Positions 4,379 to 31,712 of a stretch of DNA of 39,245 nt are shown here, piece by piece (position 1 is the stretch's first letter; every line of letters begins with the position of its first letter). Position numbers and translations under genes: made by a program. Location of the stretch: contig CAYGIN010000001.1 of assembly GCA_964349995.1 (NCBI GenBank), forward strand, positions 1 through 39,245, given 5' to 3'. Under the pieces are notes generated by a model. That model saw nothing but the letters and a program-made list of their open reading frames with translations. It had not been told where the DNA came from and made no database searches. The stretch is from an uncultured Candidatus Saccharibacteria bacterium. Lineage in GTDB: Bacteria > Patescibacteriota > Minisyncoccia > Phycocordibacterales > SBAW01.

Positions 4379-4386
4379 AGTATACT
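4379..4386 (+). promoter_or_regulatory. AGTATACT -10 box 8 nt upstream of ATG 4395 (leaderless-type promoter of cassette A)
   Basis: The same octamer and spacing occur at 7229, 16393 and 19928. Confidence 0.5.
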
Positions 4387-4589: not shown

Positions 4590-4602
4590 CAGCACGGCCT
4601 TT

Positions 4603-5052
4603 ATGACACATGAAGACCCAAAACAATGGCGCATTGTGCCGACTGTGTATGAGGAGGGAGAGTATGCCGCTCCAATCTCGCACGTTCAAAAAAGTGATTT
4701 TGTGTGGGATGCGCTCGGCCGCTCGCTTGATGCACACAAGCCCCAAGGATTGGGAATTATGCTTTCCTTCGCGTGGCAGCTGCACTTTTATGCATACAAA
4801 GAAGCAAGTGCTCGCGGGATAGTGACCGCGGTTGCAATGCCGACCAATGTCAGCGCGCTGTCGGGGCTTATGAAGTCGGTCCCCATTGAGGCGGTTCTGA
4901 CCACAGAGGAAGGGGCACACGCATTCGTACAAGATCTGCAAGAGGCGGGGATGCTCGAGAGAATAAAGGTGTGGTTTATTGTGTCTCCAAAAGAACGCCC
5001 CAGCTCGTTTGTGGCGCCCGTTGGTACTACCGTGCACGACCTACTTCCATGA
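4603..5052 (+). CDS. Cassette A partner protein (149 aa from ATG 4603; the ORF opens at GTG 4573), function unknown
   Basis: It is a paralog of 16625..17062. There is no signal peptide. The stop TGA 5050-5052 overlaps ATG 5049 of the ligase. By eye, the central part (GIMLSFAWQLHFYAYKEASARGIVTAVAMPTN...PIEAVLTTEEG) weakly resembles the N-terminal subdomain of long ANL enzymes. Confidence 0.75.
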   Translation: MTHEDPKQWRIVPTVYEEGEYAAPISHVQKSDFVWDALGRSLDAHKPQGLGIMLSFAWQLHFYAYKEASARGIVTAVAMPTNVSALSGLMKSVPIEAVLTTEEGAHAFVQDLQEAGMLERIKVWFIVSPKERPSSFVAPVGTTVHDLLP

Positions 5053-7228: not shown

Positions 7229-7236
7229 AGTATACT
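7229..7236. promoter_or_regulatory. Palindromic AGTATACT box centred in the 23-bp gap between divergent starts 7220 (-) and 7244 (+)
   Basis: AGTATACT is its own reverse complement, so it reads TATACT on both strands. It lies 8 nt and 7 nt from the two ATGs. Confidence 0.55.
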
Positions 7237-10214: not shown

Positions 10215-10219
10215 GTAGA

Positions 10220-11629
10220 ATGTCTCCAACCATAAAATTTTTTTTCATACTTGTGCTTGTCGGTCTGCTTCTAACATTTGCATGGAGGCAGTATGCCGCA
10301 GAGGCCACATTTGGTATTTGCCGTAACTGCAACGTCATTGTTATTGGTGTAGACACGCTTCGTGCAGACCGCGTGCATGCGCTTGGCTATTTCCGCGACA
10401 CAACACCAACGATAGATGCACTTGCAGGGCGGGGATATGTATTTTCTCAGGCCATAGCTCCGGCAAGTTGGACCGTGCCTTCTTTTATGTCTATTTTTAC
10501 TGGAGTCTACCCATCGGTTCATAAAGTAGTAAATAAGTACAGGGTTTTTACTGAAGAGACGCAAATCCTTTCTAATCTTGAGACGCTTTCTCCAAACATC
10601 CAGACGCTGGCGCAGGTTCTAAAAAACGAAGGATATGCAACCGGTGGTTTTACGGGAGATGCAGGCGTGTCATCCAAATTCGGATACGGCCAAGGTTTTG
10701 ATGTGTATACTGACGAAAAAGCATTTGGTGGACTTGAAAATAGTGAAAACCACGCTCTTGCATGGCTAGATACGCAGAAGGAAAATAATTTTTTTATGTT
10801 CTTTCATGGGTATGATTTACATGGCCAGTTTCCTCCACCTACCCAAGAGCGATATGTAGACGTCACATATACAGGGTCATACACAGGAACTCCTAAAGAA
10901 GAAGAAATCCTTCGAGAGGAGGTGCTCACCCCGCATGGAGTGGAGTTGACAAGTAGTGACGTTTCTTTTTGGAACGCGGTGTATGACAATAAAGTCCGCA
11001 GTGCGGATGAAAAGCTCGGTGCGTTCCTTTCTAAGCTTTCAGACAGAGGCATGCTCTCGCGCACGCTTATTGTGGTCGTGTCTGACCATGGGGAAGAGTT
11101 CTATGAACACGGCGGGTTTGATCACGGACACTCACTATACGATGAACTTATTCATGTGCCACTTTTGTTTATTGTGCCGGGCATGACGGGAGGGGTAACC
11201 ATTTCATCGCAAGTCAGTACCATGGATGTCATGCCTACAATATTGCACCTACTTGGGATCAGGCAGTCGCAAGGGATTGAAGCTCAGTTACGCGGGCGCA
11301 AGAATTTGGCAGAGTATTTTACGAATCCTGCAGGGCCTGGGTCCGATGTGTATTCGGAAACTGATTATCGTGGATATACACACAAACGAAGTATTCGGAC
11401 CGCAGATGGGTGGAAGTATATTATGACGCTTGAGAGTGGAGCAGAAGAATTGTACAACCTCAATACAGATACAAAAGAAAAGACAAATCTTATCGGCGTT
11501 GAGTTAGAAATAGCTGAAACGTTGCGCGTAGGATTGAGACAGCATCTTGAGCAAGACTTACATACTGATCTTTCAAATAGACCAAGCATTTCCTGTTTAC
11601 CTGTATACCAAGGAGAATGTCAGCAATAG
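10220..11629 (+). CDS. Second sulfatase-family enzyme, N-terminally anchored, LtaS/phosphotransferase-like
   Basis: Motifs: GVDTLRADR, SWTVPSFMSIFTGVYP (Thr at the nucleophile position), SDHGEEFYEHGGFDHGHSLYDE. Confidence 0.8.
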   Translation: MSPTIKFFFILVLVGLLLTFAWRQYAAEATFGICRNCNVIVIGVDTLRADRVHALGYFRDTTPTIDALAGRGYVFSQAIAPASWTVPSFMSIFTGVYPSVHKVVNKYRVFTEETQILSNLETLSPNIQTLAQVLKNEGYATGGFTGDAGVSSKFGYGQGFDVYTDEKAFGGLENSENHALAWLDTQKENNFFMFFHGYDLHGQFPPPTQERYVDVTYTGSYTGTPKEEEILREEVLTPHGVELTSSDVSFWNAVYDNKVRSADEKLGAFLSKLSDRGMLSRTLIVVVSDHGEEFYEHGGFDHGHSLYDELIHVPLLFIVPGMTGGVTISSQVSTMDVMPTILHLLGIRQSQGIEAQLRGRKNLAEYFTNPAGPGSDVYSETDYRGYTHKRSIRTADGWKYIMTLESGAEELYNLNTDTKEKTNLIGVELEIAETLRVGLRQHLEQDLHTDLSNRPSISCLPVYQGECQQ

Positions 11630-11684: not shown

Positions 11685-12278
11685 ATGAGTGGCGGTACTT
11701 TTTCCATAGTGTTTCGGGGGTTCTCCACCCTCATTATTTTTTTTGTTGTGTTGTACGCAGTGAGAGTGTCTGCAGCGACACTCACGACAAATGTCACTAT
11801 AACGGGCGCCGCTAGCGTACTTGGAACCCTTTCCAAAGGATCCGGTACGTTCGTTATTGACCACCCACTCGACCCTGCAAACAAACTGCTTTTCCACTCA
11901 TTCGTCGAGTCTCCTGACGTGAAAAACATCTACGACGGCATCGCAACGCTCGACAGCAGTGGGGAAGCAACAATTGTGTTGCCGAACTACTTTCTTGCAC
12001 TCAATAAAGATTTTAGATACTTGGCAACGCCGCTCGGTGCTCCGATGCCTAACTTGCATTTAGGAAAGGAAATACAGAAACGCTGGTTTAACTTCTTTGG
12101 CCCCATTCAATTTAAAATAGTTGGCGGTGCGGCGGGAGGCCGCGTTTCGTGGCAAATAACTGGCATCCGACACGACAAATTTATTGAAGATAACCCTATT
12201 GTGGTTGAAGTAGAAAAATCCGACACGACGTTGGTAAAAAAAGGCGAGTATGTTTCGCCAGAATTATATGCGCAATAA
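11685..12278 (+). CDS. Secreted paralog 1 of a three-gene tandem family (197 aa)
   Basis: It has a signal peptide and a conserved core: SKGSGTFVIDHPLDPANKLLFHSFVESPDVKNIYDGIATLDSSGEATIVLP...RVSWQITGIRHD...NPIVVEVEKSDTTLVKKG. Confidence 0.85.
   Translation: MSGGTFSIVFRGFSTLIIFFVVLYAVRVSAATLTTNVTITGAASVLGTLSKGSGTFVIDHPLDPANKLLFHSFVESPDVKNIYDGIATLDSSGEATIVLPNYFLALNKDFRYLATPLGAPMPNLHLGKEIQKRWFNFFGPIQFKIVGGAAGGRVSWQITGIRHDKFIEDNPIVVEVEKSDTTLVKKGEYVSPELYAQ
11835..11983 (+). repeat. Near-identical DNA block shared by paralogs 1 and 2 (partner 12403..12551)
   Basis: 148 of 149 nt are identical; the only difference is a11969 versus g12537. Flanking coding sequence is strongly diverged. Confidence 0.9.
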
Positions 12279-12825
12279 ATTACATATCATCAGAATAAGT
12301 GTAAGCCTCCTATTGCTCGGAACCCCTTTGCTTGTCTATGGAGTAACACTCACTGGAAACATACAGTTTCAAGGCAATCTGGCTATTACCGGAAGCGTTT
12401 CAAAAGGATCCGGTACGTTCGTTATTGACCACCCACTCGACCCTGCAAACAAACTGCTTTTCCACTCATTCGTCGAGTCTCCTGACGTGAAAAACATCTA
12501 CGACGGCATCGCAACGCTCGACAGCAGTGGGGAAGCGACAATTGTGTTGCCAAGCTATTTCGACGCACTTAATGTCTCTTTTCGGTATCAATTTTTTCCA
12601 CTTGATACCGCTGATCCTAATCTGTATGTCAAAACTGAAGCAGATGTGACAAAAAATCGCTTTACTATTGCGGGAGGAACTGCAGGCAATAGGATTTCAT
12701 GGCAGATAACCGGCATCCGACACGATAGGTATATTGTGAATAATCCCATTGTGGTTGAAGTAGAAAAATCCGACACGACGTTGGTAAAAAAAGGTCAGTA
12801 CTTATTTGATGGCTATGAAAAATAA
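12268..12825 (+). CDS. Secreted paralog 2 (185 aa from ATG 12268; the ORF also has ATG 12250)
   Basis: It has the same core as paralog 1, including a 149-nt block that is 148/149 identical at the DNA level. Confidence 0.85.
   Translation: MRNKLHIIRISVSLLLLGTPLLVYGVTLTGNIQFQGNLAITGSVSKGSGTFVIDHPLDPANKLLFHSFVESPDVKNIYDGIATLDSSGEATIVLPSYFDALNVSFRYQFFPLDTADPNLYVKTEADVTKNRFTIAGGTAGNRISWQITGIRHDRYIVNNPIVVEVEKSDTTLVKKGQYLFDGYEK
12403..12551 (+). repeat. Partner of block 11835..11983
   Basis: See 11835..11983. A further 47-nt perfect block links 12198..12244 with 12748..12794. Confidence 0.9.
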
Positions 12826-13570
12826 TATAAACTCATTAAAATATTTCATCGCGCCAGTCGTGTTTTTACTCCCTCTGGTCTTCTTTTTTCTTCCGGTGCA
12901 TACCATATATGCATATGGTCAGGGGTACTATGTCGGCTACTACCAAGCTGCCTACTATAGCCAGCCATACTACCAAGGGTACTACCAAGGCTACTATCAG
13001 CCATATTATCAACCTTACTACCAGCCGACGTATCAGACGGTGTTTACTAGAAATGCGGCAGCAACTAGAAATGTTAGTGTTACCGGCGTTCTTTCTAAAA
13101 GCTCCGGTACGTTCGTTATTGACCACCCACTCGACCCTGCAAACAAACTGCTTTTCCACTCATTCGTCGAGTCTCCAGATGTAAAAGACCTCTATGACGG
13201 AGTTGCAACTCTTGACGACACAGGTGAGGCGACTGTTACACTGTCCACCTACTTTGAAGCTCTTAATAAAGACTATCGATATCTGATACGGCCACTCGGG
13301 CAGTCAATGCCAAACCTCTACATCAAGCAGGAAGTCAAGAACAATCAATTTTTGATTGCCGGTGGCGTCAAAGGAGGCCGCGTTTCGTGGCAAATAACTG
13401 GCGTCCGCCATGACCCCTACATCGTCGCACATCCAATCGTGGTTGAAGTGCAAAAAAGCAAAGATGCCCTAGTCGACAGGGGGCAGTATGTGTATGCCGC
13501 TGGTTTTACATCACAAGGGAGAGGGCTGTTTGGTTCCATCACGTCCCTTCTCGGCTCTTTTTTCCGTTAG
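12815..13570 (+). CDS. Secreted paralog 3 with a Tyr/Gln/Pro-rich low-complexity insert
   Basis: It has the same core (SSGTFVIDHPLDPANKLLFHSFVESPDVKDLYDG...RVSWQITGVRHD) plus YAYGQGYYVGYYQAAYYSQPYYQGYYQGYYQPYYQPYYQPTYQ after the signal peptide. The ORF opens at TTG 12806, with ATGs at 12809 and 12815. Confidence 0.85.
   Translation: MKNNINSLKYFIAPVVFLLPLVFFFLPVHTIYAYGQGYYVGYYQAAYYSQPYYQGYYQGYYQPYYQPYYQPTYQTVFTRNAAATRNVSVTGVLSKSSGTFVIDHPLDPANKLLFHSFVESPDVKDLYDGVATLDDTGEATVTLSTYFEALNKDYRYLIRPLGQSMPNLYIKQEVKNNQFLIAGGVKGGRVSWQITGVRHDPYIVAHPIVVEVQKSKDALVDRGQYVYAAGFTSQGRGLFGSITSLLGSFFR
13103..13186 (+). repeat. 84-nt block in paralog 3 identical to 11841..11924 in paralog 1
   Basis: 84 of 84 nt are identical by hand alignment. 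A 30-nt perfect block, 13373..13402 = 12135..12164, is shared only by paralogs 1 and 3. Confidence 0.85.
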
Positions 13571-14806: not shown

Positions 14807-16385
14807 GAGTGTCTATTAGAGGTTGCATTACTTTATTGTGCGCCTGGATATGCATCGACAAAAGCTCGTCGAGAGAGTACATGTTTTGCAAATCGCGTCG
14901 ATAGGAGAGTAGCGTAAACCCTGTTGGAGGAACTTCATGCTTGGCCACCCCATAAAATAGAGTCGTGTCTCTTCCGAAGGGCCCTGTTTCGTTTGCAAGC
15001 AGTAAAAGTGGTGAAATACCACTGCGAATCATGGCAAATACGTTGGTCCGATAGGAATCAAATACTGCGGTTGTGTACGTACTTGCCTGGAGATCGTCAA
15101 AATACCCAATCATCAGTTCAAATCCAGCGCTACGCGTTTTTGCCTGAAGAGAAAGATCGCGTAGCCTGTGCACCTCTTTTTTTGAACCAAGAAAAAAGAT
15201 GAGGTCTGCGTCAGTTGTGTTTGCAAGGAGCGTGTCGATTTGTGCAATAAGGGCGTCGTAGGTTCCTTGAGAAAGAACCTCATGGGTTAAGAAGATATTT
15301 TGGGCAACGAGTACATTGTGGACGAGGGGAGCGTATGCGCTACTTACCTGTGCAATGGGATTTTTTTGCAGGAGTGCATGCGCATTGTATATGGAAAGCA
15401 GGTCACCAAATTCGCGCCCGGAATCCTGGCAGATGTATACATTGAAAGGTTGATATGAATAGGGAATGCCCGTTGCATATAGCGCCTTACTGAAAGATAC
15501 GGATATTTTGGAGAGATCGTAAAAAAAAGTGTCGCTTAGCAAGGTGACATATACTGCTGTTGTCGATGAAAAGGCCGAAGTGTGAAGACTTACGTCGTAA
15601 TACGTTGGCGAGTACGATGCATAGCAGGAAGATGAGGAGAGCCCCACGGTTGCTGTGTCGCGAAGTCCTTTATTAGATTTCTCGGCGTAGCGGCGGAGTG
15701 CTGACTGAGCGTCCGCGATGGGTTGCGGTGCACGGGCTTGCAATGGAGACGCTATATTTTTTTGTGCAGGCGCACGCACGGAGGTCCATAGAACTTTTTC
15801 TGCACAGCTGGCATCTCTGCCTTCCGCGCACATAAATCGCCGCATCTCTTCTTCACGCATGACCGCAAGTTGCTCTTGCCCCTTTCTCAGGATTTCTGCA
15901 ACATAGGTCGAACTTGTAAATCCTTTGAATGATTGTAAGTTCAAAGGCATTCCAACAGACAAAAGAGCAATTGCATTTGCAAGGTCGTGGTCGTATGCAT
16001 CAAACAAAGACAAGAGAGCGTTGTGGTAGATTTTTGCATTTGAGGCCGATGCATCTGAGAGTACGTTGCGGCGAGCCTCTTCCGTGTTTGGGATGTGTGA
16101 AAGAAAATCCATCGGGTATGCACGTGTGTGGAGGACGCGACTTGGGTCATCTGAAAAAGGGAGCACGGAGATGGCGGTGGTTTTTTTGAATGCCTCAACC
16201 GCCTGTCTTGCCTCACTCACTGACATGCCAGGCATCGCGAGCATCGGGCTCAGTTCATGTATTCGGGCATAGGCGTCCCACCCGCCAATCTGCACTATAG
16301 ACGACGTGTTTTTTTGATATATACCAAGCCCCACAAAAACCAAAAATACCATAAGCAGTATGATGAATTTCTTTACGTGGCGCAT
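14781..16385 (-). CDS. N-terminally anchored hypothetical protein (534 aa), paralog of 18345..19919
   Basis: It has a single N-terminal TM helix. It is alignable by eye with the 524-aa paralog, for example FMCAEGRDASCAEK vs FACFEGDARSCESL, and IGYFDDLQASTY vs LGYFDDLQIGSY. Its 3' end overlaps the convergent gene by 26 nt. Confidence 0.85.
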   Translation of the reverse strand: MRHVKKFIILLMVFLVFVGLGIYQKNTSSIVQIGGWDAYARIHELSPMLAMPGMSVSEARQAVEAFKKTTAISVLPFSDDPSRVLHTRAYPMDFLSHIPNTEEARRNVLSDASASNAKIYHNALLSLFDAYDHDLANAIALLSVGMPLNLQSFKGFTSSTYVAEILRKGQEQLAVMREEEMRRFMCAEGRDASCAEKVLWTSVRAPAQKNIASPLQARAPQPIADAQSALRRYAEKSNKGLRDTATVGLSSSSCYASYSPTYYDVSLHTSAFSSTTAVYVTLLSDTFFYDLSKISVSFSKALYATGIPYSYQPFNVYICQDSGREFGDLLSIYNAHALLQKNPIAQVSSAYAPLVHNVLVAQNIFLTHEVLSQGTYDALIAQIDTLLANTTDADLIFFLGSKKEVHRLRDLSLQAKTRSAGFELMIGYFDDLQASTYTTAVFDSYRTNVFAMIRSGISPLLLLANETGPFGRDTTLFYGVAKHEVPPTGFTLLSYRRDLQNMYSLDELLSMHIQAHNKVMQPLIDTLTVRRAQE

Positions 16386-16392
16386 AGAAACA

Positions 16393-16400
16393 AGTATACT
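16393..16400. promoter_or_regulatory. Palindromic AGTATACT box centred in the 23-bp gap between divergent starts 16385 (-) and 16409 (+)
   Basis: It lies 7 nt and 8 nt from the two ATGs. TTTACG at 16372-16377 could serve as a -35 for the plus direction with a 17-nt spacer. Confidence 0.55.
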
Positions 16401-16408
16401 CTAGGTAC

Positions 16409-16600
16409 ATGACAAAGAAGTTTTTCCTCATGGTGGCGGTGATACTTTCTTTTTTTGGGGTAGGACTTTTTCCTTCGAAAGCCACTGACACTTTCTGCGC
16501 TCTTCCGACTAACGCTGAAGGTCTCTACTCTAAACAAACACAGGGTCAAACAAGCAATTCAGCCCGCGTCTATCAAGTCTGGTGTGGTGGTATTTTTTGA
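16409..16600 (+). CDS. Small exported precursor peptide B (63 aa) ending ...RVYQVWCGGIF
   Basis: MTKK followed by the hydrophobic core FFLMVAVILSFFGVGLF, then a polar body with two Cys. Its position and C-terminal motif match peptide A. Confidence 0.7.
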   Translation: MTKKFFLMVAVILSFFGVGLFPSKATDTFCALPTNAEGLYSKQTQGQTSNSARVYQVWCGGIF

Positions 16601-16624
16601 ATCTGATTAGTGTACACACGAGCA

Positions 16625-17062
16625 ATGCATGATGGCCACATAGTAACGCGGGTGGTTCCTGAGGATTGGACTGATGCGTCCTCGCGCATACTTTTTATGC
16701 CAAATGACGCTTCTTGGAACACGCTTGGACGTATGCTTGATGAGACACATCCTAAATGTATTGGGATTCTGCTTCCCCTCGTATCTCAATTGCATAGATA
16801 TGTGTATAGGGAAGCAAGAGCGCGTGGCATCACCGTTGCACTTGTTCCACCCTCAAACGCGATGGTACTCACAGGTCTTATGGAAGAGGTTCCTATTGAA
16901 GCAGTTGTCGCAGACGAACATGGCGCTCGTCTATTTGCTGAAGATCTTCAACACATGGGGCTTCTCTCGCGTGTCCGCGGTTGGCTCATTATTTCTCCTA
17001 AAGGAAAGGAGTCATCCTACGCACCTCAGTTTGGGGTTGTGTTTCGAGACTCATTTCTATGA
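16625..17062 (+). CDS. Cassette B partner protein (145 aa from ATG 16625; the ORF opens at GTG 16610)
   Basis: It is a paralog of 4603..5052, for example WNTLGRMLDETHPK vs WDALGRSLDAHKPQ, and VPIEAVVADEHGARLFAEDLQHMGLL vs VPIEAVLTTEEGAHAFVQDLQEAGML. TGA 17060-17062 overlaps ATG 17059. Confidence 0.75.
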   Translation: MHDGHIVTRVVPEDWTDASSRILFMPNDASWNTLGRMLDETHPKCIGILLPLVSQLHRYVYREARARGITVALVPPSNAMVLTGLMEEVPIEAVVADEHGARLFAEDLQHMGLLSRVRGWLIISPKGKESSYAPQFGVVFRDSFL

Positions 17063-18342
17063 CACCACTTTCTCGAGCTCTATCATTTGCGATTGAAAAT
17101 CCATATTCCGATTTTTATCGGAAGAAATATGGTGCTAAGTATCATGCATATATGCGGGGAAATTTTTCTAGCATCCCGCCACTTGTCCGCGACGATATTG
17201 ACGCGGTGCCACTGTATGAGCGCATTTTTGTTCCAAAGGAGATGGTGCACCTTGTTCGCTCAACATCAGGTTCCTCTGGGCGCCGCGTCACTGGATTCCC
17301 AATGGTCGAAGAACCTGACCTTGTGCAATTCCGCATATCAATTGGTTTTACAAAGGAGGAAGCAGAATCGGCGCGCTACTTCAGTTCTTATTTTAAAATG
17401 AATGAAGTATTCAGTCTCCTTTTATTTTCATTAGTAGGCGTTGTGCACGAGGTGGATCTCAGTGACGTCAACGGAGGTCGCGTCACTATGGTTGACATAA
17501 AATATCCAGAACTCACTGCGCGCCTTGCAAAAGAGGCACAGGCTGACGCGATTTTTATTTTTCCATCACCGCTGTTGCTGCTTGCGCCAGAGCTTACTCG
17601 GGCCGGTGTTGCGGGGCAGATTAAACTCATACTCCTTGTAGGGGAGCGCATGATTGAATCGCAGAGACTCGCTATCGTGGAAGCATTCCCAGATGCACGT
17701 ATTGAGAATATATATGCATCAACAGAATCCCAGGGCATTGCCGCACAGACCTGTCCGCTGTTTCATACAAAAAAACCGAACCTTATACATCCAAATAACA
17801 CCTATCTATTTGAGCTCCTGCCTTCGAGTGGAGACGAGAGCCTTCCGCTTTCTGTAGGGCAGGAAGGTGAGGTAGTCCTTACCACATTGCTTCCCGTGGT
17901 TTTTCCACTGATTCGTTTTAGAACCGGGGACTATGCTGTAGTTCGTCAAAACGGGCTGTGCGCGTGCGGTAGCCCTGCGCCCCTCGTTGAGATTCTTGGG
18001 CGTGTTGAACTTGATCGTATAAAAATCCCATTTGGAGGCATTAGCGTCGCTGCGCTTGAAGAAGCGGTGCGCTCCCTCCCTCTTCCCGTTAGGGATTTTA
18101 GCGCTGTATGGATTGAGAACGAAACTATTCCACGTCTTGCTATCTCTGTGTATACAGACGAAATAATTCCAAGCTCATTTGCAGATATTGTCGCGAAAGC
18201 GTTAAAGATAAATTCTGAGGAAAGCTACTTTGCTATTTGGGGAAAAGGTGCGGTTGGGGAGTTAACGCTTGCCCGGGAGGAAGTTTCGTCACTGGAGTTT
18301 CTTCGCTCGGGTAAACGGAAACGATTACATATTCAACGATAG
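17059..18342 (+). CDS. PaaK/F390-synthetase-like adenylate-forming ligase, cassette B (427 aa)
   Basis: Motifs: STSGSSGRR, ASTESQG, FRTGD, CACGSP...GRVELDR, and C-terminal GKRKR. It has the same length as the cassette A ligase. Confidence 0.85.
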   Translation: MTPLSRALSFAIENPYSDFYRKKYGAKYHAYMRGNFSSIPPLVRDDIDAVPLYERIFVPKEMVHLVRSTSGSSGRRVTGFPMVEEPDLVQFRISIGFTKEEAESARYFSSYFKMNEVFSLLLFSLVGVVHEVDLSDVNGGRVTMVDIKYPELTARLAKEAQADAIFIFPSPLLLLAPELTRAGVAGQIKLILLVGERMIESQRLAIVEAFPDARIENIYASTESQGIAAQTCPLFHTKKPNLIHPNNTYLFELLPSSGDESLPLSVGQEGEVVLTTLLPVVFPLIRFRTGDYAVVRQNGLCACGSPAPLVEILGRVELDRIKIPFGGISVAALEEAVRSLPLPVRDFSAVWIENETIPRLAISVYTDEIIPSSFADIVAKALKINSEESYFAIWGKGAVGELTLAREEVSSLEFLRSGKRKRLHIQR

Positions 18343-18344
18343 AA

Positions 18345-19919
18345 TTATTGAAGTATTGTGCGTCGCGCTTTCAATTCAGTAATAAGGTCAGAAAAAGCTT
18401 TATGACGTGCGACGATATCCGCAGCAAATAGCTGGCGCTCATTTAAAAATCCTGCTTGGTGTACGAGAGTCGTTGAGAGCGGTCGGATGGGAATTTCTGA
18501 ATCCTTAAACGGGTCAATACTGTATATGCGTTTACTCAGCAGGGAGTGTCCACTTGGAAACACCGTCTCATTATCAAGCGCATATAACTGCGACAGTCCA
18601 CCGCGCGTAATAAGAAAAACACTCGGAGGGGAGGGGTTTAACCTGTATGGAATGTAGCTTCCTATTTGCAAGTCATCAAAATACCCAAGTACTAAATCAA
18701 GGCTTGAACTTTTTGCCCGAGCTTCAGTTACCCGCTCTGCAAGTTTTATCACCTCCTCTCTCCCAAGGCTTTGTATGAGGGAGGTAGGGTCTGTTTTCCG
18801 TATTGTAAATATGGCAGCGTTAAGATATGCGTTGTACTCATGTTCTTGAAGCAACAACGGTCGCATAGAGAATTTCTCGGAAGCAGTTTGAAGATCACGG
18901 AGGGTTCTTGTGGAGAAACCTGTCGGCGTACTCGGCGCGCTGAGTAGCGTCTTGGACAGATTTGCCATGCCGAGAATCCTCCCCACATCCATACCGAAAT
19001 CTGGGCACATATATGCATTAAATGGCTGGAATGTAAGAGTTACGCCTGACGCATGCAAAAGCTTGTAGAATGGGTGAGTGCTTGATGCGGTGTTTTCAAC
19101 ATAGAGCCGGTTGAGATACACGACGTGTGCCCCAGGCACTTCAGAGAGCCGCGATGGTTGCACTGTAAGCGCAAAATATGCTGGCGTATCATTAAAACAC
19201 GAAGAATTTTCGATTACGAATATAGGAGAGGTTTCAATTGAAGGGTATATGACAGAAAGTGGATATGTATTCTTTTGAACAACTTCCGTTTCGTATGTTC
19301 TGTTGCTGGTTTGATATAGTTCGCCGAAATTAAATTGTAGCTGTAGTAGTGATTCGCATGAACGTGCGTCTCCCTCAAAACAGGCAAACCTCCGGTCCTC
19401 TTTCTTCAATGCAGTAGCGTTGGCGCGCAGTGCTTCTGTAAGTATTGTTTGAACAGAGTCTCCGGTATTTTGGCCACTGAAGTATTGATACACGTTTGGA
19501 TTTTTATCCAAAGAAAGTACTGCGTCAGCCCCATGAAGGTCGTGTTCATGTGCCAGAAGGAGCGCATATAGTTTTTCATGGTACGTTCTTGCATGAGCAG
19601 GAGAAGGGTCTGCAATAAGTACTCGACGCGCTTCTTCAGCTTCGGGAAGCGTCCTTAAAAAACGGAAAGGGTAGATAGCTTCTTTTGCCTCCTTGTTTTC
19701 AGGGAACATGGGTACGGCTGCTTTTGCAGATAGTTCGAAAGCATCCAGAGCTTTTCGAAACGCACGCATATCGGTCCCAGGGAACGCGTATAGTGGGTCA
19801 AGTAATTGACGGTTGGCGTATTCCACAGCAGCTCTCTGAGGGTCAGACATAGTATGTTGCAATAGAACCGCAACAATACCCATTGCACACAACAGAATTA
19901 CAACTTTTAGTGTCCGCAT
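18345..19919 (-). CDS. N-terminally anchored hypothetical protein (524 aa), paralog of 14781..16385
   Basis: It has a single N-terminal TM helix. Its stop lies 2 nt from the ligase B stop (convergent), and its start lies 8 nt from the palindromic box at 19928. Confidence 0.85.
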   Translation of the reverse strand: MRTLKVVILLCAMGIVAVLLQHTMSDPQRAAVEYANRQLLDPLYAFPGTDMRAFRKALDAFELSAKAAVPMFPENKEAKEAIYPFRFLRTLPEAEEARRVLIADPSPAHARTYHEKLYALLLAHEHDLHGADAVLSLDKNPNVYQYFSGQNTGDSVQTILTEALRANATALKKEDRRFACFEGDARSCESLLQLQFNFGELYQTSNRTYETEVVQKNTYPLSVIYPSIETSPIFVIENSSCFNDTPAYFALTVQPSRLSEVPGAHVVYLNRLYVENTASSTHPFYKLLHASGVTLTFQPFNAYMCPDFGMDVGRILGMANLSKTLLSAPSTPTGFSTRTLRDLQTASEKFSMRPLLLQEHEYNAYLNAAIFTIRKTDPTSLIQSLGREEVIKLAERVTEARAKSSSLDLVLGYFDDLQIGSYIPYRLNPSPPSVFLITRGGLSQLYALDNETVFPSGHSLLSKRIYSIDPFKDSEIPIRPLSTTLVHQAGFLNERQLFAADIVARHKAFSDLITELKARRTILQ

Positions 19920-19927: not shown

Positions 19928-19935
19928 AGTATACT
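19928..19935. promoter_or_regulatory. Palindromic AGTATACT box centred in the 23-bp gap between divergent starts 19919 (-) and 19943 (+)
   Basis: It lies 8 nt and 7 nt from the two ATGs. Confidence 0.55.
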
Positions 19936-19942: not shown

Positions 19943-21190
19943 ATGCAAACGCCTCTATGGGTTTCTAAATTCATTCCACATTTGGTCGTGGGGTTTCTTT
20001 TTTTTGGCCTAGTTATGTACGGTATATACGGAGGAATTCCAGCAGAATACCCAGAACTTTCAAAAACATATTGGAATAGTGCAACCTTTGAACAACTTAG
20101 ACACAATTTTACTGACATAGCAGATGAGAAGGGCGCACTATACGCGTTTGAGATACTGCGCCGTGCACCACTGCCTCCACAAACAGATGTCCACCTGCTT
20201 GGGCATGTTATTGGGGACAAGTTATATAAAGAGTATGGAGAAGATGCGATCCAATTTTGTACGAGCGAATTTAGGAATGCTTGTTCACATACAGTCGTTG
20301 TTGGGCTCTTGCTCGACTACGGACCCAGCGCGCTCGACGATATTGGAGAGTCGTGTAAAAAAGCCCCCGGCGGCATCGGCGCGTACACGATGTGCTTTCA
20401 TGGGTTGGGGCACGGCGTACTTGCGTATGAACAGTATGATGTAGAAAAAACTATCGCATTGTGCAAAAAAACTGGGACTGCAGAGTATCATAATGAAGAG
20501 TACGCGCAGTGTGTAGGCGGAGCGATTATGGAAGCAATTTCGGGGGGCGGGCATGACAGGGTGGCGTGGGAGAAGGCTCGACCTCTCTATCTCAACACTC
20601 GGGACCCGCTTTCGCCCTGCAACCGGAGCTTTATGCCAGACGAGGTTCGCAGTTTTTGCTACATATATATTACTCCCCATTTAGTCGAGGCAGCTGGAGG
20701 TGACATGAACCATCCGGACCCCGCAGTATTTCCAAAAGCCTTTTCATTTTGCAGGGCGCTCCCTCAATCTGACAGAAACAGAGAGGTGTGTATGAACGGT
20801 TTTGGGAAAGAGTTTGTCGGATGGGCGAGACAAAGCGACGGACGCTCCATCACGACGCTGACTGATCAAGAAATGGAACTGAGCTCCTCATGGTGTGCAC
20901 TTTCTGGCACCGCAGAGGACACGCGGTATTGTCTCCAGGGAATACAATCGTATATTTATTGGGGAGGGGAAAATGACCCTCATTCGTCAGTCCGCTTTTG
21001 TTCACTGCTGAGCAAACAAAGCAAGGAAGCTGTGGCGATTTGTAATGCGGATTTAGCGCGACTTATTGCAAAATATGTTCCTGACACCAATACACGGAGC
21101 GCAACCTGCGCGTTATTGCCGGCGGATGTACAACACGAGTGTTTGACGTATGAATTACTATGGAACGGCCAACTCGACCTCTTACACTGA
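19943..21190 (+). CDS. Cys/His-rich repeat protein, family member 2 (415 aa)
   Basis: It has a TM anchor, HLLGHVIGDK, MCFHGLGHGVLAY, and about seven C-x(7-15)-C-x-x-G units. Confidence 0.85.
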   Translation: MQTPLWVSKFIPHLVVGFLFFGLVMYGIYGGIPAEYPELSKTYWNSATFEQLRHNFTDIADEKGALYAFEILRRAPLPPQTDVHLLGHVIGDKLYKEYGEDAIQFCTSEFRNACSHTVVVGLLLDYGPSALDDIGESCKKAPGGIGAYTMCFHGLGHGVLAYEQYDVEKTIALCKKTGTAEYHNEEYAQCVGGAIMEAISGGGHDRVAWEKARPLYLNTRDPLSPCNRSFMPDEVRSFCYIYITPHLVEAAGGDMNHPDPAVFPKAFSFCRALPQSDRNREVCMNGFGKEFVGWARQSDGRSITTLTDQEMELSSSWCALSGTAEDTRYCLQGIQSYIYWGGENDPHSSVRFCSLLSKQSKEAVAICNADLARLIAKYVPDTNTRSATCALLPADVQHECLTYELLWNGQLDLLH

Positions 21191-21200
21191 ATATATACGT

Positions 21201-22274
21201 ATGTTTCATATGAGCCTACATATACAAAAAAAATACAGCATTGGCCTGTTGTGCGGAGTGGTTGTCGTACTTGGTGGAATGTTTGTGTACTCCCACTTTG
21301 TATCCGCGTCAGTGCCGGTGTTTAACTTGAATTCACGTGAGGGCCTTGCACAGGCGGAATTATTTTGGAATGAAGAAATCTCTCGTGTGGGAGGAGAAAA
21401 AGCGTACATGGAATTTTCGCGGGCCTATGCAAGTTCGACACCTCAATATCAACACACAGCCGCTCATATTTTTGGAGGGAGTTTATACACGAAGGTTGGA
21501 GTGTCCGGGCTTTCCGTGTGCGACGATTCTTTTTCATACGGTTGTTTCCACGAATTTCTTGCCCGCGCTATACAGGAGGAAGGACTCGGTGCTGTAAATA
21601 TGCTCAATGAAGGGTGTTTTCAGGCGCTTGGTCCCGGAAAGTCACTTTCCTGCGCGCACGGGCTTGGCCATGGAATCCAATCATATCTTGGGTATACGGA
21701 CGATGCATTGAGAAAGGGTCTTGAAATTTGCAAAACATTGCCGTATGCAGACCCAATAGGTGGCTGCCCGGGGGGATTATTTATGGAATACAACATGCGC
21801 ACCATGCACTCGTTTTCCGGTATGCCAATAAGAAGCGCTGATGTTGGGGGCATGCAACACCCTTGTGATATTCTCAAAAAAGAAGATAGGGCGGTTTGTT
21901 ATTATTGGCAACCGCAGTGGTGGATTCAGCTTTTTAAGAGTCAAGGAAAGGATGTCACCGATGTATTTGTTGAAGTAGGTCGCTTGTGTGGCAGTATAGC
22001 TGAAAACTTACATAAACAATGTTTTGAAGGTGTGGGAACGGTCGTCGGAATGTCAGTGAAATATGATGTTCCACAAACGATAGCCCTCTGTGACGTAGTG
22101 TCAGTGCGAGAAAATGAAAGAAGTTCCTGTAGGGTAAGCGCCGCGGGTTCTTTTTTTGGAGAGCTTTCTGCACGGAAGAATGCACCTCTTTTGTGTGTTG
22201 GACTTGTAGAACCTTGGTACACAACATGTGGTGCGGTTGCGGTGGGGAAAGGAGAAATCCCGTCTACTCGTTGA
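21201..22274 (+). CDS. Cys/His-rich repeat protein, family member 3
   Basis: It has a TM anchor and the motifs SCAHGLGHGIQSY and GCPGGLFMEY. I preferred start ATG 21201 (or 21210) over ATG 21150, because the shorter N-terminus matches the paralogs and avoids a 41-nt overlap. Confidence 0.8.
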   Translation: MFHMSLHIQKKYSIGLLCGVVVVLGGMFVYSHFVSASVPVFNLNSREGLAQAELFWNEEISRVGGEKAYMEFSRAYASSTPQYQHTAAHIFGGSLYTKVGVSGLSVCDDSFSYGCFHEFLARAIQEEGLGAVNMLNEGCFQALGPGKSLSCAHGLGHGIQSYLGYTDDALRKGLEICKTLPYADPIGGCPGGLFMEYNMRTMHSFSGMPIRSADVGGMQHPCDILKKEDRAVCYYWQPQWWIQLFKSQGKDVTDVFVEVGRLCGSIAENLHKQCFEGVGTVVGMSVKYDVPQTIALCDVVSVRENERSSCRVSAAGSFFGELSARKNAPLLCVGLVEPWYTTCGAVAVGKGEIPSTR

Positions 22275-22283: not shown

Positions 22284-23507
22284 ATGAAACAAGAATATAC
22301 AAAAAATAAATTATGGACGCACGCTACACTCCTTTTTCTTTGTATTGCCCTCGTATTTTTTCTCGTTGTTAGTGTAAGTCCCGCGCTGTCTCATACGGTA
22401 GCACGCCTCACCGCCAAGTTTTTTGTGATGTATTGTGCAGGACAGAGTGACAAAGCCGCATGTTATGAAGACAATGTGCCTCGCTTGCTCTATATAGCCT
22501 CTGTGGAGAATGTTTTTGGGGCGGTGCGTGAAATACAAAAACAAGATACATCATACCGTTTTTGTCACGTGCTTGGACATCAGATTGGTGTTGTTGAAGT
22601 TAGAAAGGATCCAATGTATTGGATGGATATTATGCATAAAAACCCCCCTGATGGTTTGTGTTCAAACGGCTACATCCACGGTGTTATTGTACAGAGATTT
22701 AGCCAATCAGTACTTTCGCCTGAACAAATTGACGCAATTGTTCCTGACCTTTCGCGCGCGTGTGAGGCATCGGCAGGGTGGAACCCAAGTGGACTTGATA
22801 AGGGGATGTGTTATCACGGCATGGGCCATGTCTTGACGCATATGACCGGCGCAGATATGCCGAGTGCGGTTTCGTATTGCAAGGAGATTTCAATTCATGG
22901 CATAGAAGACTACAGCCAGACCTGTATTTCAGGGGTGTTTATGCAGATATTTCAGCCGCTTGAGCCAGAAGACTATGCACTCATCGCGCATCTGCCGGTC
23001 AAACCGACAAAAGAAACACTCGCATCGTTTTGCGGTGTGTACGATACAGAGGAAGAACGGAGCGCTTGTTTTGGGGAGGGGTGGCCTCTCTTCCATGAAG
23101 AATTAAAAACAGCCGAAGGAATAAAAACATTTTGCACGACAAGCAATGTGGCCTCGACGCAGAAAAATTGTTTTATGACAGTGCTTTCCATAGGCGCGCG
23201 CGGGGCTTTGTCGGATCCTGAAAGACAAGAGACGATTTGTAGCACATTGCCTTCAGCGATCGGCAGGCAGTGTCTCGGCATTCTTGCCGTGGCATTCATC
23301 GAAGAAGACAGGACACAGGTTGAAAGTGCCACTGCTGTATGCGGCCGTGCGCCAGACACCTCTAAGGATTACTGTTACGAGTACCTGCTTGCACGGTCGG
23401 ACTTCACATTTGGCACGGACCTGCGAGCACGAGATGCTTTATGTAAAGCATTTCCTGATTCATGGCGTGTGCGTTGCGAGGCGGGGGAACGTCCGGAGAT
23501 ACGCTAA
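22284..23507 (+). CDS. Cys/His-rich repeat protein, family member 4 (407 aa)
   Basis: It is closest to member 1. Motifs: FCHVLGHQIG, LCSNGYIHG, MCYHGMGHVLTHM, TCISGVFMQIFQP. Confidence 0.85.
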   Translation: MKQEYTKNKLWTHATLLFLCIALVFFLVVSVSPALSHTVARLTAKFFVMYCAGQSDKAACYEDNVPRLLYIASVENVFGAVREIQKQDTSYRFCHVLGHQIGVVEVRKDPMYWMDIMHKNPPDGLCSNGYIHGVIVQRFSQSVLSPEQIDAIVPDLSRACEASAGWNPSGLDKGMCYHGMGHVLTHMTGADMPSAVSYCKEISIHGIEDYSQTCISGVFMQIFQPLEPEDYALIAHLPVKPTKETLASFCGVYDTEEERSACFGEGWPLFHEELKTAEGIKTFCTTSNVASTQKNCFMTVLSIGARGALSDPERQETICSTLPSAIGRQCLGILAVAFIEEDRTQVESATAVCGRAPDTSKDYCYEYLLARSDFTFGTDLRARDALCKAFPDSWRVRCEAGERPEIR

Positions 23508-25015: not shown

Positions 25016-25021
25016 TATACT
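25016..25021 (+). promoter_or_regulatory. TATACT -10 box 8 nt upstream of the gap start codon
   Basis: Its spacing is identical to the other leaderless-type promoters in the window. Confidence 0.45.
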
Positions 25022-25029
25022 GAATCAGT

Positions 25030-31698: not shown

Positions 31699-31704
31699 TA
31701 TATT
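31699..31704 (+). promoter_or_regulatory. TATATT -10 box 8 nt upstream of the L25 start
   Basis: Its spacing is consistent with the leaderless pattern. Confidence 0.4.
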
Positions 31705-31712
31705 GTCCCGAC

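Follow-up and report, generated by a model that had tools for sequence, protein, structure and literature searches.

A conserved Cys-Gly-Gly microprotein encoded with a PaaK-type ligase and a putative pseudo-ligase in Parcubacteria-type CPR bacteria

The window analysed here, a contig stretch of 39,245 nucleotides, carries a three-gene unit (cassette B) composed of a microprotein gene, a gene for a putative pseudo-enzyme and a gene for a predicted adenylate-forming ligase. Very probably this unit is a genuine operon, inherited as a whole and maintained as a real, selected module. By sequence comparison it occurs only in CPR bacteria of the Parcubacteria type (Adlerbacteria and relatives), and it was previously undescribed. 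The sole invariant feature of the peptide is its C-terminus, Y-x-V-(G/W)-C-G-G-Φ-(F/Y)-COOH, and we hypothesize, with somewhat less than even confidence, that the ligase acts on this tail by thioester chemistry. CPR/Patescibacteria account for a large share of bacterial diversity, and their secreted peptides, signalling and surface chemistry are barely known; the module is sharply defined and experimentally testable, with a microprotein bearing a ten-residue C-terminal motif, a predicted ATP-dependent ligase and a dedicated pseudo-enzyme. The features of cassette B, of its paralogue cassette A and of the genes flanking cassette B are the following:

16409-18342, + strand: cassette B, with a 63-aa peptide, a partner of 145 or 150 aa and a 427-aa ligase
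16372-16400, + strand: promoter-like site of cassette B, with a -35 hexamer TTTACG at 16372-16377, a 17-nt spacer and a -10 hexamer TATACT at 16395-16400
16393-16400, + strand: palindrome AGTATACT, with the -10 TATACT of cassette B inside it
16409-16600, + strand: peptide B ORF, 63 aa, with the C-terminus RVYQVWCGGIF and then the stop
16565-16597, + strand: codons of the peptide B C-terminal tail, R-V-Y-Q-V-W-C-G-G-I-F
16625-17062, + strand: partner B from its ATG start, 145 aa, the database form (P0001)
16610, + strand: alternative GTG start of partner B, giving 150 aa
17059-17062, + strand: ATGA stop/start overlap of partner and ligase in cassette B
17059-18342, + strand: ligase B, 427 aa
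4379-6332, + strand: cassette A, the paralogous unit, with genes at 4395-6332
4379-4386, + strand: -10 box AGTATACT of cassette A
4395-4589, + strand: peptide A, 64 aa, with the C-terminus RIYFVGCGGLF
4603-5052, + strand: partner A, which shares an ATGA overlap with ligase A
5049-6332, + strand: ligase A, 427 aa
14781-16385, - strand: m534, 534 aa with an N-terminal membrane anchor, divergent from peptide B across a common 23-nt gap
18345-19919, - strand: m524, a paralogue of m534, converging on the stop codon of ligase B

The first-pass annotation had described cassette B as AGTATACT, peptide, partner, ATGA junction and ligase, and all of these elements were found where it had placed them; comparison of the ORF coordinates of both units likewise bore out its statement that cassette A has the same architecture. 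The gap from the peptide stop to the partner start is 9-24 nt. The ATGA overlap, by which ligase B is predicted to be translationally coupled to partner B, is also present in two other loci (L002 and L004).

Cassette B had further been called a second, diverged copy of the unit, left by an old duplication that was maintained and that shares no near-identical DNA with cassette A. The three gene pairs are indeed paralogous at the protein level (BLASTP identities of 30%, 47% and 42% for the peptide, partner and ligase pairs, with E values of 1e-6, 6e-39 and 1e-102, respectively), and at the DNA level the best blastn match has an E of 0.008 (48 nt, 77%), with a longest common exact word of 11 nt. 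Age and maintenance are supported by saturated dS between A and B, by at least two other genomes (CALREW010000001 and JARIGK010000001) that carry A-type and B-type cassettes approximately 12 kb apart, and by a tail variant that tracks the ligase clade (VGCGGLF in A-type, [VI]WCGG[IV][FY] in B-type). By these comparisons, the triad as a whole was duplicated and has been kept as a unit in at least three genomes.

On the codon evidence, the peptide is a genuine gene under purifying selection. Its ORF adjoins each close ligase homologue in eight further distinct loci, and for the three pairs of orthologues without dS saturation the dN/dS of the small ORF was 0.125, 0.20 and 0.28, which indicates purifying selection and not the value of about 1 that would have spoken for a non-coding stretch. 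The tail codons quoted earlier (tgt ggc gga ctt ttc in A, tgt ggt ggt att ttt in B) are correct, and the view that the tail is conserved at the amino-acid level, and that the ORF is therefore real, agrees with this low dN/dS and with the varied synonymous codons: the Cys-Gly-Gly residues are encoded by TGC or TGT and by all four GGN codons across 22 distinct DNA versions. An overlapping conserved nucleotide element, once considered as another explanation of the tail, is disfavored by the same codon usage and by an Rfam search that returned no element overlapping the peptide region. That the small ORF arose by chance, or that it marks a regulatory RNA or a leader for the partner and ligase genes, is already effectively refuted: nothing positive speaks for it, there being just the usual warning that ORFs of 60 aa tend to be spurious and the lack of a Pfam or NCBIfam model for the peptide. 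Against it stand, besides the dN/dS, the codons and the Rfam result, a tail that is conserved while A and B share 41% nucleotide identity and more than 45 homologues with the same signal-anchor, cysteine and tail architecture.

These homologues make the peptide family wider than the A/B pair from which it was first recognized. All of them are annotated as "hypothetical", all come from Parcubacteria-type CPR bacteria, and they combine an N-terminal signal or membrane anchor with the ending ...Y-x-V-(G/W)-C-G-G-Φ-(F/Y); the database set comprises 37 proteins and the tabulated set 39 members. The motif always terminates the protein, and a C-terminal extension was never seen among the 39 tabulated members, in all of which exactly four residues follow the tail cysteine (Cys at -5). 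The last residue is aromatic in 38 of them, the exception (P0066) ending in Leu, as does P0070 from outside the tabulated 39. In the family alignment (A3), Cys59-Gly60-Gly61 is invariant and Tyr55 nearly so. The family-wide tail consensus is YFVGCGGFF, to which the tail of cassette A is nearer; individual tails read CGGLF, CGGIF and CGGFF, with CSSLI in L027. Of the (M/F)-C-A-(V/L) motif that had been noted after the hydrophobic core of peptides A and B, the cysteine is kept, but the rest is not conserved family-wide. A second cysteine is found 14-31 residues upstream of the tail cysteine in 37/39 peptides and could simply indicate an extracellular disulfide with it; the other two have no second cysteine and keep the tail cysteine.

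Peptide B consists of MTKK, a 17-residue hydrophobic segment (residues 5-21), a polar linker with Cys30 and the tail. Its charge bias (+2.8 in the N-flank, +0.15 in the C-flank) leads to a predicted N-in/C-out topology or to a predicted cleaved signal peptide. Across the 39 members, the hydrophobic-segment and charge-bias analysis gave a DltX-like shape, i.e., a single pass with a conserved motif at the predicted extracellular C-terminus.

The ligase is, from its motifs and profile matches, a divergent PaaK-type adenylate-forming (ANL) enzyme, and it looks catalytically competent. Ligase B contains the P-loop TSGSSGR (residues 69-75), YASTESQG, FRTGD, CxCGS, GRVELDR and a C-terminal GKRKR lysine (K419), so that the ANL core motifs A3, A5 (Y..TE), A7 ((Y/F)RTGD), the A8 hinge (GR..D) and the A10 lysine are all present; T69, S70, G71, G74, Y219, T289, G290, D291, G314, R315, D319 and K419 are invariant in an alignment of 10 sequences (A1). 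Matches were obtained to the NCBIfam DVU_1553 family (5e-17 for ligase B, 8e-26 for ligase A), to NCBIfam PaaK models (1e-6 to 2.5e-8 for ligase B, up to 2e-14 across both ligases) and, weakly, to Pfam AMP-binding (16.6 bits for B and 29.3 bits for A, with a gathering score of 29.9 bits). None of the NCBIfam scores of ligase B reaches its curated cut-off. PDB sequence matches of ligase B include PaaK (9s3l, 2.8e-11), 2y4o, 4r1l, 2y27, AjiA1 and NatL2.

An assignment to PaaK proper, in the equivalog sense, was rejected. The ligases score 27-44 bits against a cut-off of 646 for TIGR02155 and 33-53 bits against 700 for NF041878, and no paa catabolic genes were found among the window ORFs scanned. 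Since the scores lie so far below the PaaK-family cut-offs, the ligases are placed in a separate, CPR-restricted subfamily. They share with the PaaK family, including the CoA-independent NatL2 and AjiA1, a length of about 427 aa, an N-terminal FYR motif, the P-loop, Y..TE, RTGD, CxCG, GR..D and the C-terminal catalytic lysine, and differ from it in that a pseudo-ligase fragment and a microprotein gene invariably accompany the cassette ligase and no paa genes lie nearby.

The partner belongs to a very small family, with only 28 relatives among 1.84 billion representative proteins, and partner B has no Pfam or NCBIfam match. Its link to PaaK is transitive, from the short partner through long partner-like forms to the ligase: hhalign aligned the short partner to the long proteins with a probability of 99.4% (E 7.5e-22) and the long form to ligase residues 2-299 with a probability of 97.4% (E 1.6e-11), whereas the direct comparison of short partner and ligase is weak (E 0.0098, probability 4%). 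The long-form HMM also matches bona fide PaaK-like ligases at 1e-9 to 1e-10, and the AF2 model of partner B (pLDDT 72) has PaaK1 (2y27/2y4n) as its top Foldseek match (E 2e-3, TM 0.53). The partner aligns solely to ligase residues about 95-225 and has lost the catalytic motifs (P-loop, A5, A7, A8 and A10); the long forms have (Y/F)L.SEF in place of the P-loop TSGSSGR and end before A8/A10. We infer that partner B, a stand-alone protein lacking the P-loop, is what remains of the central alpha/beta sub-domain in a PaaK-like N-terminal domain, i.e., a pseudo-enzyme. A novel fold was considered and rejected, as hhalign, HMM and Foldseek results point to a degenerate fragment of a PaaK-like ligase.

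A partner or partner-like gene is adjacent to the ligase in 16/16 loci of the subfamily, and a peptide gene lies within 4 kb in 15 of these, the exception being a 7.3-kb contig. The linkage of partner, ligase and peptide persists despite varying gene order and strand (L089, L091, L092, L098 and L100). The pairing sought in RiPP-type systems, a precursor-peptide gene that is co-operonic with its enzyme gene and conserved together with it across genomes, was thus found here. In the wider family, the peptide is 9 kb from the ligase in L090, and the available flank of L093/L095 or L099 contains no ligase. Because the peptide is not always beside a ligase in this wider family, a conserved cell-surface island may account for some of the linkage. 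Genes of the m53x family flank the peptide in many loci, with synteny in L001, L002, L004, L092, L096, L098 and L099, and may be functionally associated with it; m534 itself had no family match in domain searches, and its AF2 model is poor (pLDDT 35).

Regarding function, we hypothesize a route based on a tail thioester. The microprotein would be in the cytoplasm before export, since it is too short for co-translational targeting, and, since the predicted topology puts the tail outside the cell, modification of the tail must precede export. The ligase would use ATP to form an acyl-adenylate, assisted by the pseudo-ligase, which would bind the peptide or serve as a scaffold, and the thiol of the tail cysteine, carried on a flexible Gly-Gly arm, would replace the CoA thiol of an ordinary PaaK to yield a thioester. 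The C-terminal Phe/Tyr carboxylate of the peptide itself could supply the acyl group, which would give a five-residue, AIP-sized, ATP-driven thiolactone; a small acid from elsewhere could also do so, in the manner of S-acylation by LuxE. Once it carries the thioester, the peptide would be exported to serve as a signal or to donate the activated group at the cell surface, where there is no ATP. The fixed place of the tail cysteine and the nearly constant aromatic end of the peptide suit this chemistry. Against a tail thioester, a single thiolactone step does not explain the two to three ligases per peptide seen in L089, L091, L098 and L017, and the upstream second cysteine in most of the peptides could reflect a plain disulfide.

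Precedents exist for parts of this chemistry. NatL2, of the PaaK type, does its work independently of CoA (PMC7204872), and LuxE, which is PaaK-like, passes its acyl-adenylate to a cysteine thiol in a flexible C-terminal motif and not to CoA (PMC9157457), as proposed here. The LuxE cysteine, however, is in the enzyme's own tail, and LuxE has no C-terminal sub-domain, whereas the cassette ligase keeps this sub-domain (K419), has no Pfam LuxE match and would act on a cysteine carried by a separate, predicted-exported microprotein. With AgrD/AgrB, the cassette shares a small ribosomal precursor that must cross the membrane and a cysteine five residues from the C-terminus followed by small and hydrophobic residues; AIP-II of S. 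aureus ends in CSSLF. Unlike AgrD, the cassette peptide has a Sec-type signal or anchor at its N-terminus and no charged C-terminal extension, ending at the putative ring. The thiolactone is hypothetical here, and the energy of its thioester would come from ATP through the ligase instead of from peptide-bond cleavage. No AgrB, AgrC/AgrA, histidine-kinase or response-regulator domain was detected by Pfam in a scan of most long window ORFs.

The order of a small precursor gene, a dead homologue and an active ATP-using enzyme is also that of YcaO-type RiPP systems, in which the E1-like partner proteins of the YcaO cyclodehydratases are inactive paralogue partners. By this analogy, the dead paralogue could bind the peptide. 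The cassette differs from such systems in its ANL/PaaK enzyme family and in a Sec-type N-terminus in place of a classical leader. No gene for a RiPP recognition element, a protease, a transporter or a receptor was recognized in the window, and Pfam and NCBIfam scans of the cassette and its neighbors gave no domain of the first three kinds, which also counts against the tail-thioester proposal. The most specific form of our proposal is that the PaaK-type ligase and the pseudo-ligase together adenylate the C-terminal Phe/Tyr of the peptide, which the Cys four residues upstream would capture as a 16-membered thiolactone; this product, ATP-driven, AgrB-free and Sec-exported, would be a signal or a surface-attachment thioester of an episymbiotic CPR cell. 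In this full form the proposal is unlikely to be correct. A PaaK/ANL enzyme with the C-terminus of a peptide as its acid substrate is not known to us, and our literature search returned no report of a PaaK-type enzyme in a RiPP pathway.

Alternatively, it is possible, though on the unlikely side, that there is no enzyme-substrate relation at all. The peptide would then be an exported, disulfide-bonded surface or signal peptide working with m53x and Cys-rich proteins, while the ligase pair would activate a small aromatic or acyl acid for metabolism or the envelope, and the genes would be neighbors by virtue of one cell-surface island. Consistent with this, p19x paralogues, Cys-rich 40x, m53x, Ig-like and GAPDH/RpiB/Rpe/transketolase genes are syntenic across distant lineages, and m53x genes are the immediate neighbors of the peptide in cassette B and in L092, L096, L098 and L099. 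In L094/L097 the peptide lies beside Ig-like/GAPDH genes, on contigs of 1.2-1.9 kb that carry no ligase, and in L093/L095 it lies beside Cys-rich genes. Two conserved cysteines and a predicted exported topology suit a disulfide peptide, and small acids are the normal substrates of the PaaK family. However, the Adlerbacteria clade packs the three genes as one transcription unit with a single putative promoter, the triad was retained after duplication, and the partner and peptide families are both very rare, belong to the same clade and occur together in nearly all subfamily loci. The two peptides that dispense with the second cysteine and retain that of the tail also count against this reading.

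A role as a DltX-like acyl shuttle is quite unlikely. The microprotein would remain in the membrane with its tail outside, the ligase would make an activated donor, and a multi-pass protein would load the tail Cys or the invariant Tyr for transfer to an envelope polymer or protein. The dltX gene is the first of its operon and is followed by that of the ANL enzyme DltA, an order that the cassette matches. DltX is a single-pass microprotein that covalently carries an acyl group, shuttling D-Ala through an invariant nucleophile in its highly conserved extracellular C-terminal motif (PMC12148441), and the predicted N-in/C-out topology of the cassette peptide resembles it. The neighborhood also has conserved multi-pass membrane proteins: TPR527 adjoins cassette A, and HTTM/VKGC-like proteins are encoded beside the peptide in L089, L093 and L099 and in the ligase operon of L091; genes for surface proteins and sulfatase-family members surround the cassette. 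On the other hand, no HTTM-like gene was found in the window, the tail is unlike the acyl-shuttle motif FXYXXF with its tyrosine nucleophile, and the ligase is PaaK-like and not DltA-like. Counterparts of DltB (MBOAT), DltC (carrier) and DltD (SGNH) are missing as well, as no MBOAT, SGNH or PP-binding carrier domain was detected in the window ORFs scanned.

It is very unlikely that the ligase adenylates the peptide carboxylate for transfer to an amine (of a lipid, peptidoglycan, a protein lysine or an amino acid) in a GH3- or ubiquitin-like conjugation, with another role for the cysteine. A motif that always closes the protein, with an aromatic residue at its end, would suit such a reaction, and PaaK-type ligases such as NatL2 can form bonds other than CoA thioesters. 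Yet conjugation leaves the invariance of Cys at -5 and of Gly-Gly unexplained, the match of ligase A to the GH3 central domain is weak and not significant (E 0.17), and no acceptor-related gene was identified.

Returning to the tail-thioester proposal, if the ligase acts on the peptide, a PaaK-type ANL enzyme would join the enzymes that modify ribosomal peptides, possibly with a new way to make thioesters or carry them across a membrane; if the thiolactone reading were true, a new class of RiPP would be established, and the ligase would be the first ANL enzyme that activates a peptide C-terminus. Whatever the chemistry, two unannotated families are now defined, the ...YFVGCGGFF microproteins and the ANL-fragment partners, and an annotation rule is gained for a 60-aa gene that several gene callers missed.

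Finally, the promoter scan placed a -35-like hexamer 17 nt upstream of the TATACT box of cassette B. The ATG of peptide B follows the -10 box by 8 nt, a spacing that recurs at gapdh, the L25 gene and other, apparently leaderless genes of the contig, and the site probably functions as a promoter from which cassette B is transcribed leaderless. The palindrome AGTATACT has four copies in comparison to 0.17 expected, and TATAYT-N6-9-ATG occurs 12 times in comparison to 1.77 expected, mostly where long ORFs or identified genes begin. This distribution points to AGTATACT being a general -10 promoter element of many genes of the contig and not one specific to the cassettes. Read on the minus strand, the cassette B palindrome also lies 7 nt upstream of the divergent m534 (ATG at 16385).

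Cassette B, the second peptide-partner-ligase unit of the window, contains every element that the first-pass annotation had assigned to it, each where it was placed, and cassette A is built on the same plan:

16393-16400: AGTATACT box of cassette B
16409-16600, forward strand: peptide B, encoding MTKKFFLMVAVILSFFGVGLFPSKATDTFCALPTNAEGLYSKQTQGQTSNSARVYQVWCGGIF
16610 (GTG start, 150 aa) or 16625 (ATG start, 145 aa) to 17062, forward strand: partner B
17059-17062: ATGA overlap between partner B and ligase B
17059-18342, forward strand: ligase B, 427 aa
4379-4386, 4395-4589, 4603-5052 and 5049-6332, forward strand: box, peptide, partner and ligase of cassette A, the ligase likewise 427 aa

Public gene calls have partner B in its 145-aa form, with the ATG at 16625 as start (P0001). 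Ligase B and m524, a neighboring anchored protein, have stop codons separated by 2 nt. In pairwise comparisons between the cassettes, the peptides are 30% identical (E 1e-6), the partners 47% (E 6e-39) and the ligases 42% (E 1e-102), whereas the DNA is unrelated: the top blastn match (E 0.008) covers 48 nt at 77%, and no exact word longer than 11 nt is shared. These values agree with the earlier description of a diverged second copy without near-identical DNA. Within the window, A-versus-B dS is saturated, as expected for the old duplication that had been proposed, and both copies of the triad are retained here and in two other genomes.

Loci from other metagenomes and metagenome-assembled genomes (MAGs) were reached through the partner and ligase homologues. 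In every close relative, an ORF of 60-66 aa with the same architecture lies upstream of the partner, although several gene callers overlook it, e.g., in locus L006. Nei-Gojobori dN/dS of the peptide, restricted to orthologue pairs with unsaturated dS, was 0.125 (L002/L004), 0.20 (L007/L013) and 0.28 (cassette A of the window/L014), which indicates purifying selection rather than the value near 1 of a chance ORF; by the same estimate over orthologue pairs, the partner gave 0.08-0.23 and the ligase 0.08-0.17. Among 22 distinct DNA versions of the tail, i.e., the peptide C-terminus, the invariant cysteine is encoded by TGC in 13 and TGT in nine, and the two glycines use all four GGN codons, so that conservation is at the amino-acid level, as had been claimed from the two cassettes. 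A scan of 15500-19000 against Rfam returned zero matches at E ≤ 1, and the competing explanation by a conserved RNA element was therefore dropped. Purifying selection, conservation of the amino acids and the lack of a competing nucleotide element together show that the small ORF is a genuine coding sequence.

Profile searching retrieved 37 small proteins, 54-89 aa long, to which a degenerate DNA pattern added nine peptide loci; all members are unannotated or "hypothetical", and the peptide has no match in Pfam, NCBIfam and PADLOC scans. The starting Met, an internal Cys and a Cys-Gly-Gly with exactly two residues after it are invariant, the last residue is nearly always Phe or Tyr, and a second Cys precedes the tail Cys by 14-31 residues in 37 of 39 peptides. 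Most members carry the ending (V/I)YFVGCGGFF. The cassette A tail (RIYFVGCGGLF) is near this consensus, and that of cassette B (RVYQVWCGGIF), common to all B-type cassettes, is by comparison a derived variant. Every member has an N-terminal hydrophobic segment, with a net charge of +2.8 on the N-terminal flank, +0.15 on the C-terminal flank and -2.5 for the remainder; such a distribution is consistent with either a Sec signal peptide or anchoring in N-in/C-out orientation. Other readings of the peptide were set aside: a lipoprotein, since inspection revealed no lipobox ahead of either cysteine; a CaaX-type substrate, since the Cys occupies -5 instead of -4 and a CPBP protease is absent; and a GlyGly-CTERM/rhombosortase substrate, since no transmembrane segment follows the GG. 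A Ruminococcus ORF ending in IWCGGHY (L020) lacks a signal anchor and was discarded as a chance match. The Sungbacteria peptide (L017), with the ending VLFAGCGGFF, carries two additional cysteines. In a Paceibacterota MAG, a 70-aa signal-anchored ORF (L027, 1417-1629, reverse strand), 4.4 kb from a distant PaaK-like ligase, ends in HFSGCSSLI; this may be a Ser-Ser variant of the tail, and it resembles S. aureus AIP-II (CSSLF).

Both ligases (427 aa) score far under the curated family cut-offs in their matches to PaaK-type adenylate-forming enzymes. Their PDB matches are PaaK 9s3l (2.8e-11), 2y4o, 4r1l and 2y27, and include the CoA-independent PaaK-type AjiA1 and NatL2. Since the adenylation motifs are all kept in a ten-homologue alignment (P-loop TSG..G, Y..TE-like, (Y/F)RTGD, CxCG, GR..D and the C-terminal lysine), the ligase should be able to form an acyl-adenylate. 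Four residues of ligase B (17059-18342), C232, H244, C301 and C303, do not vary across the ligase alignment and line up with PaaK 9s3l as well; this Cys3-His1 set may be a structural metal site of the sort typical for one PaaK subgroup. Relatives above 40% identity occur only in MAGs labelled Candidatus Adlerbacteria or Nomurabacteria, which are Patescibacteria of the Parcubacteria group. In more distant lineages, a single detected peptide is accompanied by two or three tandem PaaK-like ligases, with or without a long partner-like gene:

L017, 2803-3063 and 5959-8593: multi-ligase locus
L089, 4722-9278: multi-ligase locus
L098, 1-4014: multi-ligase locus

The partner has zero Pfam, NCBIfam or PADLOC matches and very few relatives: four in a 5.8-billion-protein collection and, by exhaustive profile search, 28 among 1.84 billion representatives. 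Short forms (107-158 aa) account for ten of the 28 and long ones (184-314 aa, all but one 254-314 aa) for about 18, the latter with a PLIR(Y/F)-like motif at the end and some with CxCG too. Direct comparison of partner and ligase is weak (E 0.0098, probability 4%), and homology was thus drawn only through the long intermediates: in profile-profile comparisons, the short partner matches the long forms (probability 99.4%, E 7.5e-22) and these match ligase residues 2-299 (probability 97.4%, E 1.6e-11). Even ordinary PaaK-like ligases from other lineages of the CPR are matched by the long-form HMM (1e-9 to 1e-10). The long forms themselves have another sequence in place of the P-loop and lack the C-terminal sub-domain. 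AlphaFold2 models partner B as an alpha/beta sandwich (pLDDT 72, pTM 0.70); PaaK1 is the top PDB match of this model and other ANL enzymes come next, all with weak E-values. Taken together, the profile links, these losses and the PaaK1-like model mark the partner as a catalytically dead remnant of a PaaK-like N-domain. An intact ligase adjoins it in all 16 loci of this subfamily. In one Adlerbacteria MAG (L007 7700-8004, the same as L010), the partner gene is broken into ORFs of 50 and 51 aa by a frameshift, pseudogenisation or an assembly error; peptide and ligase are intact there, and the L013 orthologue is whole.

Peptide, partner and ligase are contiguous throughout the Adlerbacteria clade. 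In distant lineages gene order and strand vary, and the peptide lies less than 4 kb from a partner-like/ligase pair (L089, 3.8 kb; L091 and L098, 1.2 kb; L092 and L100, adjacent); the only exception among 16 loci is L088, a 7.3-kb contig. The tail variant of the peptide tracks the ligase clade.

PaaK-type enzymes make an acyl-adenylate and hand the acyl group to a thiol. In the peptide, the thiol is invariant, sits on a Gly-Gly arm and keeps a constant spacing from the C-terminus, which is free and aromatic; for these two reasons we tentatively favor thioester chemistry by the ligase at the tail cysteine, while giving it somewhat less than an even chance. The thioester would be formed in the cytoplasm, ahead of an export that would be post-translational, as a 63-aa protein requires, and the pseudo-ligase partner would serve as scaffold or peptide-binding subunit. 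The acid could be one of the following: (a) the C-terminal carboxylate of the peptide itself, which would yield a thiolactone of five residues; or (b) a separate small molecule, giving S-acylation of the tail cysteine. The fixed spacing, the aryl-acid-like aromatic last residue and the lack of an extension favor the former, which would share ring size and residue pattern with staphylococcal AIPs; unlike these, it would be ATP-powered, since the peptide lacks a cleavable C-terminal extension. The latter is favored by the substrates usual for the family and by the two or three ligases per peptide of some loci; LuxE offers a precedent for it, with a PaaK-like enzyme acylating a cysteine in a flexible C-terminal motif (PMC9157457). 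NatL2 indicates that PaaK-type enzymes can do without CoA (PMC7204872).

Alternatively, and with perhaps one chance in a few, peptide and ligase have no direct relation and the two cysteines merely form an extracellular disulfide. The conserved cell-surface island around the triad counts against a strict peptide-ligase link: the nearest peptide neighbors in some loci are m53x, Cys-rich or HTTM-like genes, the available flank of the peptide has no ligase in L093/L095 and L099, and in L090 the ligase is 9 kb off. On the other side stand the proximity of peptide and ligase and the matching of tail variant to ligase clade. A DltX-like extracellular acyl shuttle (PMC12148441), which we consider unlikely, would also suit a peptide with the predicted N-in/C-out topology. 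Conjugation of the peptide C-terminus to an amine is less probable still; it would use the free carboxylate and leave the invariant thiol aside.

We carried out literature searches on the tail motif, on PaaK with precursor peptides and on CPR peptide signalling, and found no description of the system; the tail motif in this context appears in no paper of the searchable literature. An ANL ligase, a pseudo-enzyme partner and a ribosomal microprotein are each parts of a known kind. Pfam, NCBIfam, PADLOC, PDB and the searchable literature have no description of their combination, of either accessory family or of the invariant tail. We rate the module as a peptide plus putative modifying enzyme, and both the observation and the interpretation of the first-pass annotation stand.

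The AGTATACT box is indeed present at the start of cassette B, but it is not a mark of the cassette: it belongs to a TATAYT-N6-9-ATG layout found 12 times in the window, against 1.77 expected, and the box itself has four copies against 0.17 expected by chance:

4379-4386, 7229-7236, 16393-16400 and 19928-19935: copies of AGTATACT
25016-25032, 31699-31715 and 38793-38827: further sites of the TATAYT-to-ATG layout

Most occurrences are at starts of long ORFs or identified genes (both peptide genes, s142, TPR protein, m534, m524, cys415, gapdh, L25), and most genes have no Shine-Dalgarno-like sequence upstream. Peptide B also has a -35-like TTTACG 17 nt upstream of the -10 box. The simplest reading is that the -10 box is positioned for transcription to start at or beside the ATG, yielding leaderless mRNAs, a layout that appears to be general in the window. 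From this placement, the peptide would be the first gene of a peptide-partner-ligase operon. Three 23-nt gaps lie between divergent genes (s142/TPR, m534/peptide B and m524/cys415); there, the palindromic AGTATACT could provide the -10 box of both strands.

The triad sits within a larger conserved island of p19x paralogues, Cys-rich 40x, m53x and an Ig-like protein, adjoining GAPDH/RpiB/Rpe/transketolase genes. The genes around and between the cassettes include:

8661-11629: two tandem sulfatase-family genes between the cassettes (Pfam Sulfatase, 1e-43)
11685-13570: three tandem paralogues of 197, 191 and 254 aa, 62-67% amino-acid identity
13574-14806, 19943-21190, 21150-22274 and 22284-23507, forward strand: four Cys-rich proteins of ~400 aa, 25-31% identity
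14781-16385 and 18345-19919, reverse strand: m534 and m524, proteins of ~530 aa with N-terminal anchors, 27-32% identity

The 11685-13570 paralogues, probably the "11.7-13.6 kb family" of the first-pass annotation, keep orthologues in the distant loci L092, L093 and L099; the third has a Tyr/Gln/Pro-rich N-terminal region. The Cys-rich and ~530-aa families flanking cassette B have zero Pfam, NCBIfam or PDB matches and belong to the same island conserved across lineages. For m534, the family libraries (Pfam, NCBIfam, PADLOC) and a PDB sequence search gave no match, and its AlphaFold2 model, from a two-sequence alignment, was unusable (pLDDT 35). Zero PADLOC matches and a chromosomal window with housekeeping genes led us to reject a defence system or mobile element.

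An HTTM-like multi-pass membrane protein that weakly matches the vitamin K-dependent gamma-carboxylase lumenal domain (E 0.008) lies near the peptide in four distant loci and, being absent from the window, was rejected as a cassette part:

L089 908-2215, L093 8574-9998, L099 3774-5045 and L091 4112-5380 (here in one operon with ligases): HTTM/VKGC-like genes
L092 12472-14548: YcaO cyclodehydratase and nitroreductase-family gene, 2.3 kb downstream of a peptide ending in IYFVGCGGFF

YcaO and nitroreductase are the typical pair of azole-forming RiPP pathways; with the pair in L092 and in no other locus, azole formation was rejected as a general component. The 3′ ends of the genes cys410 and m534 share 26 nt. 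Orthologous sulfatase pairs adjoin partner-like/ligase genes in L006 and L088.
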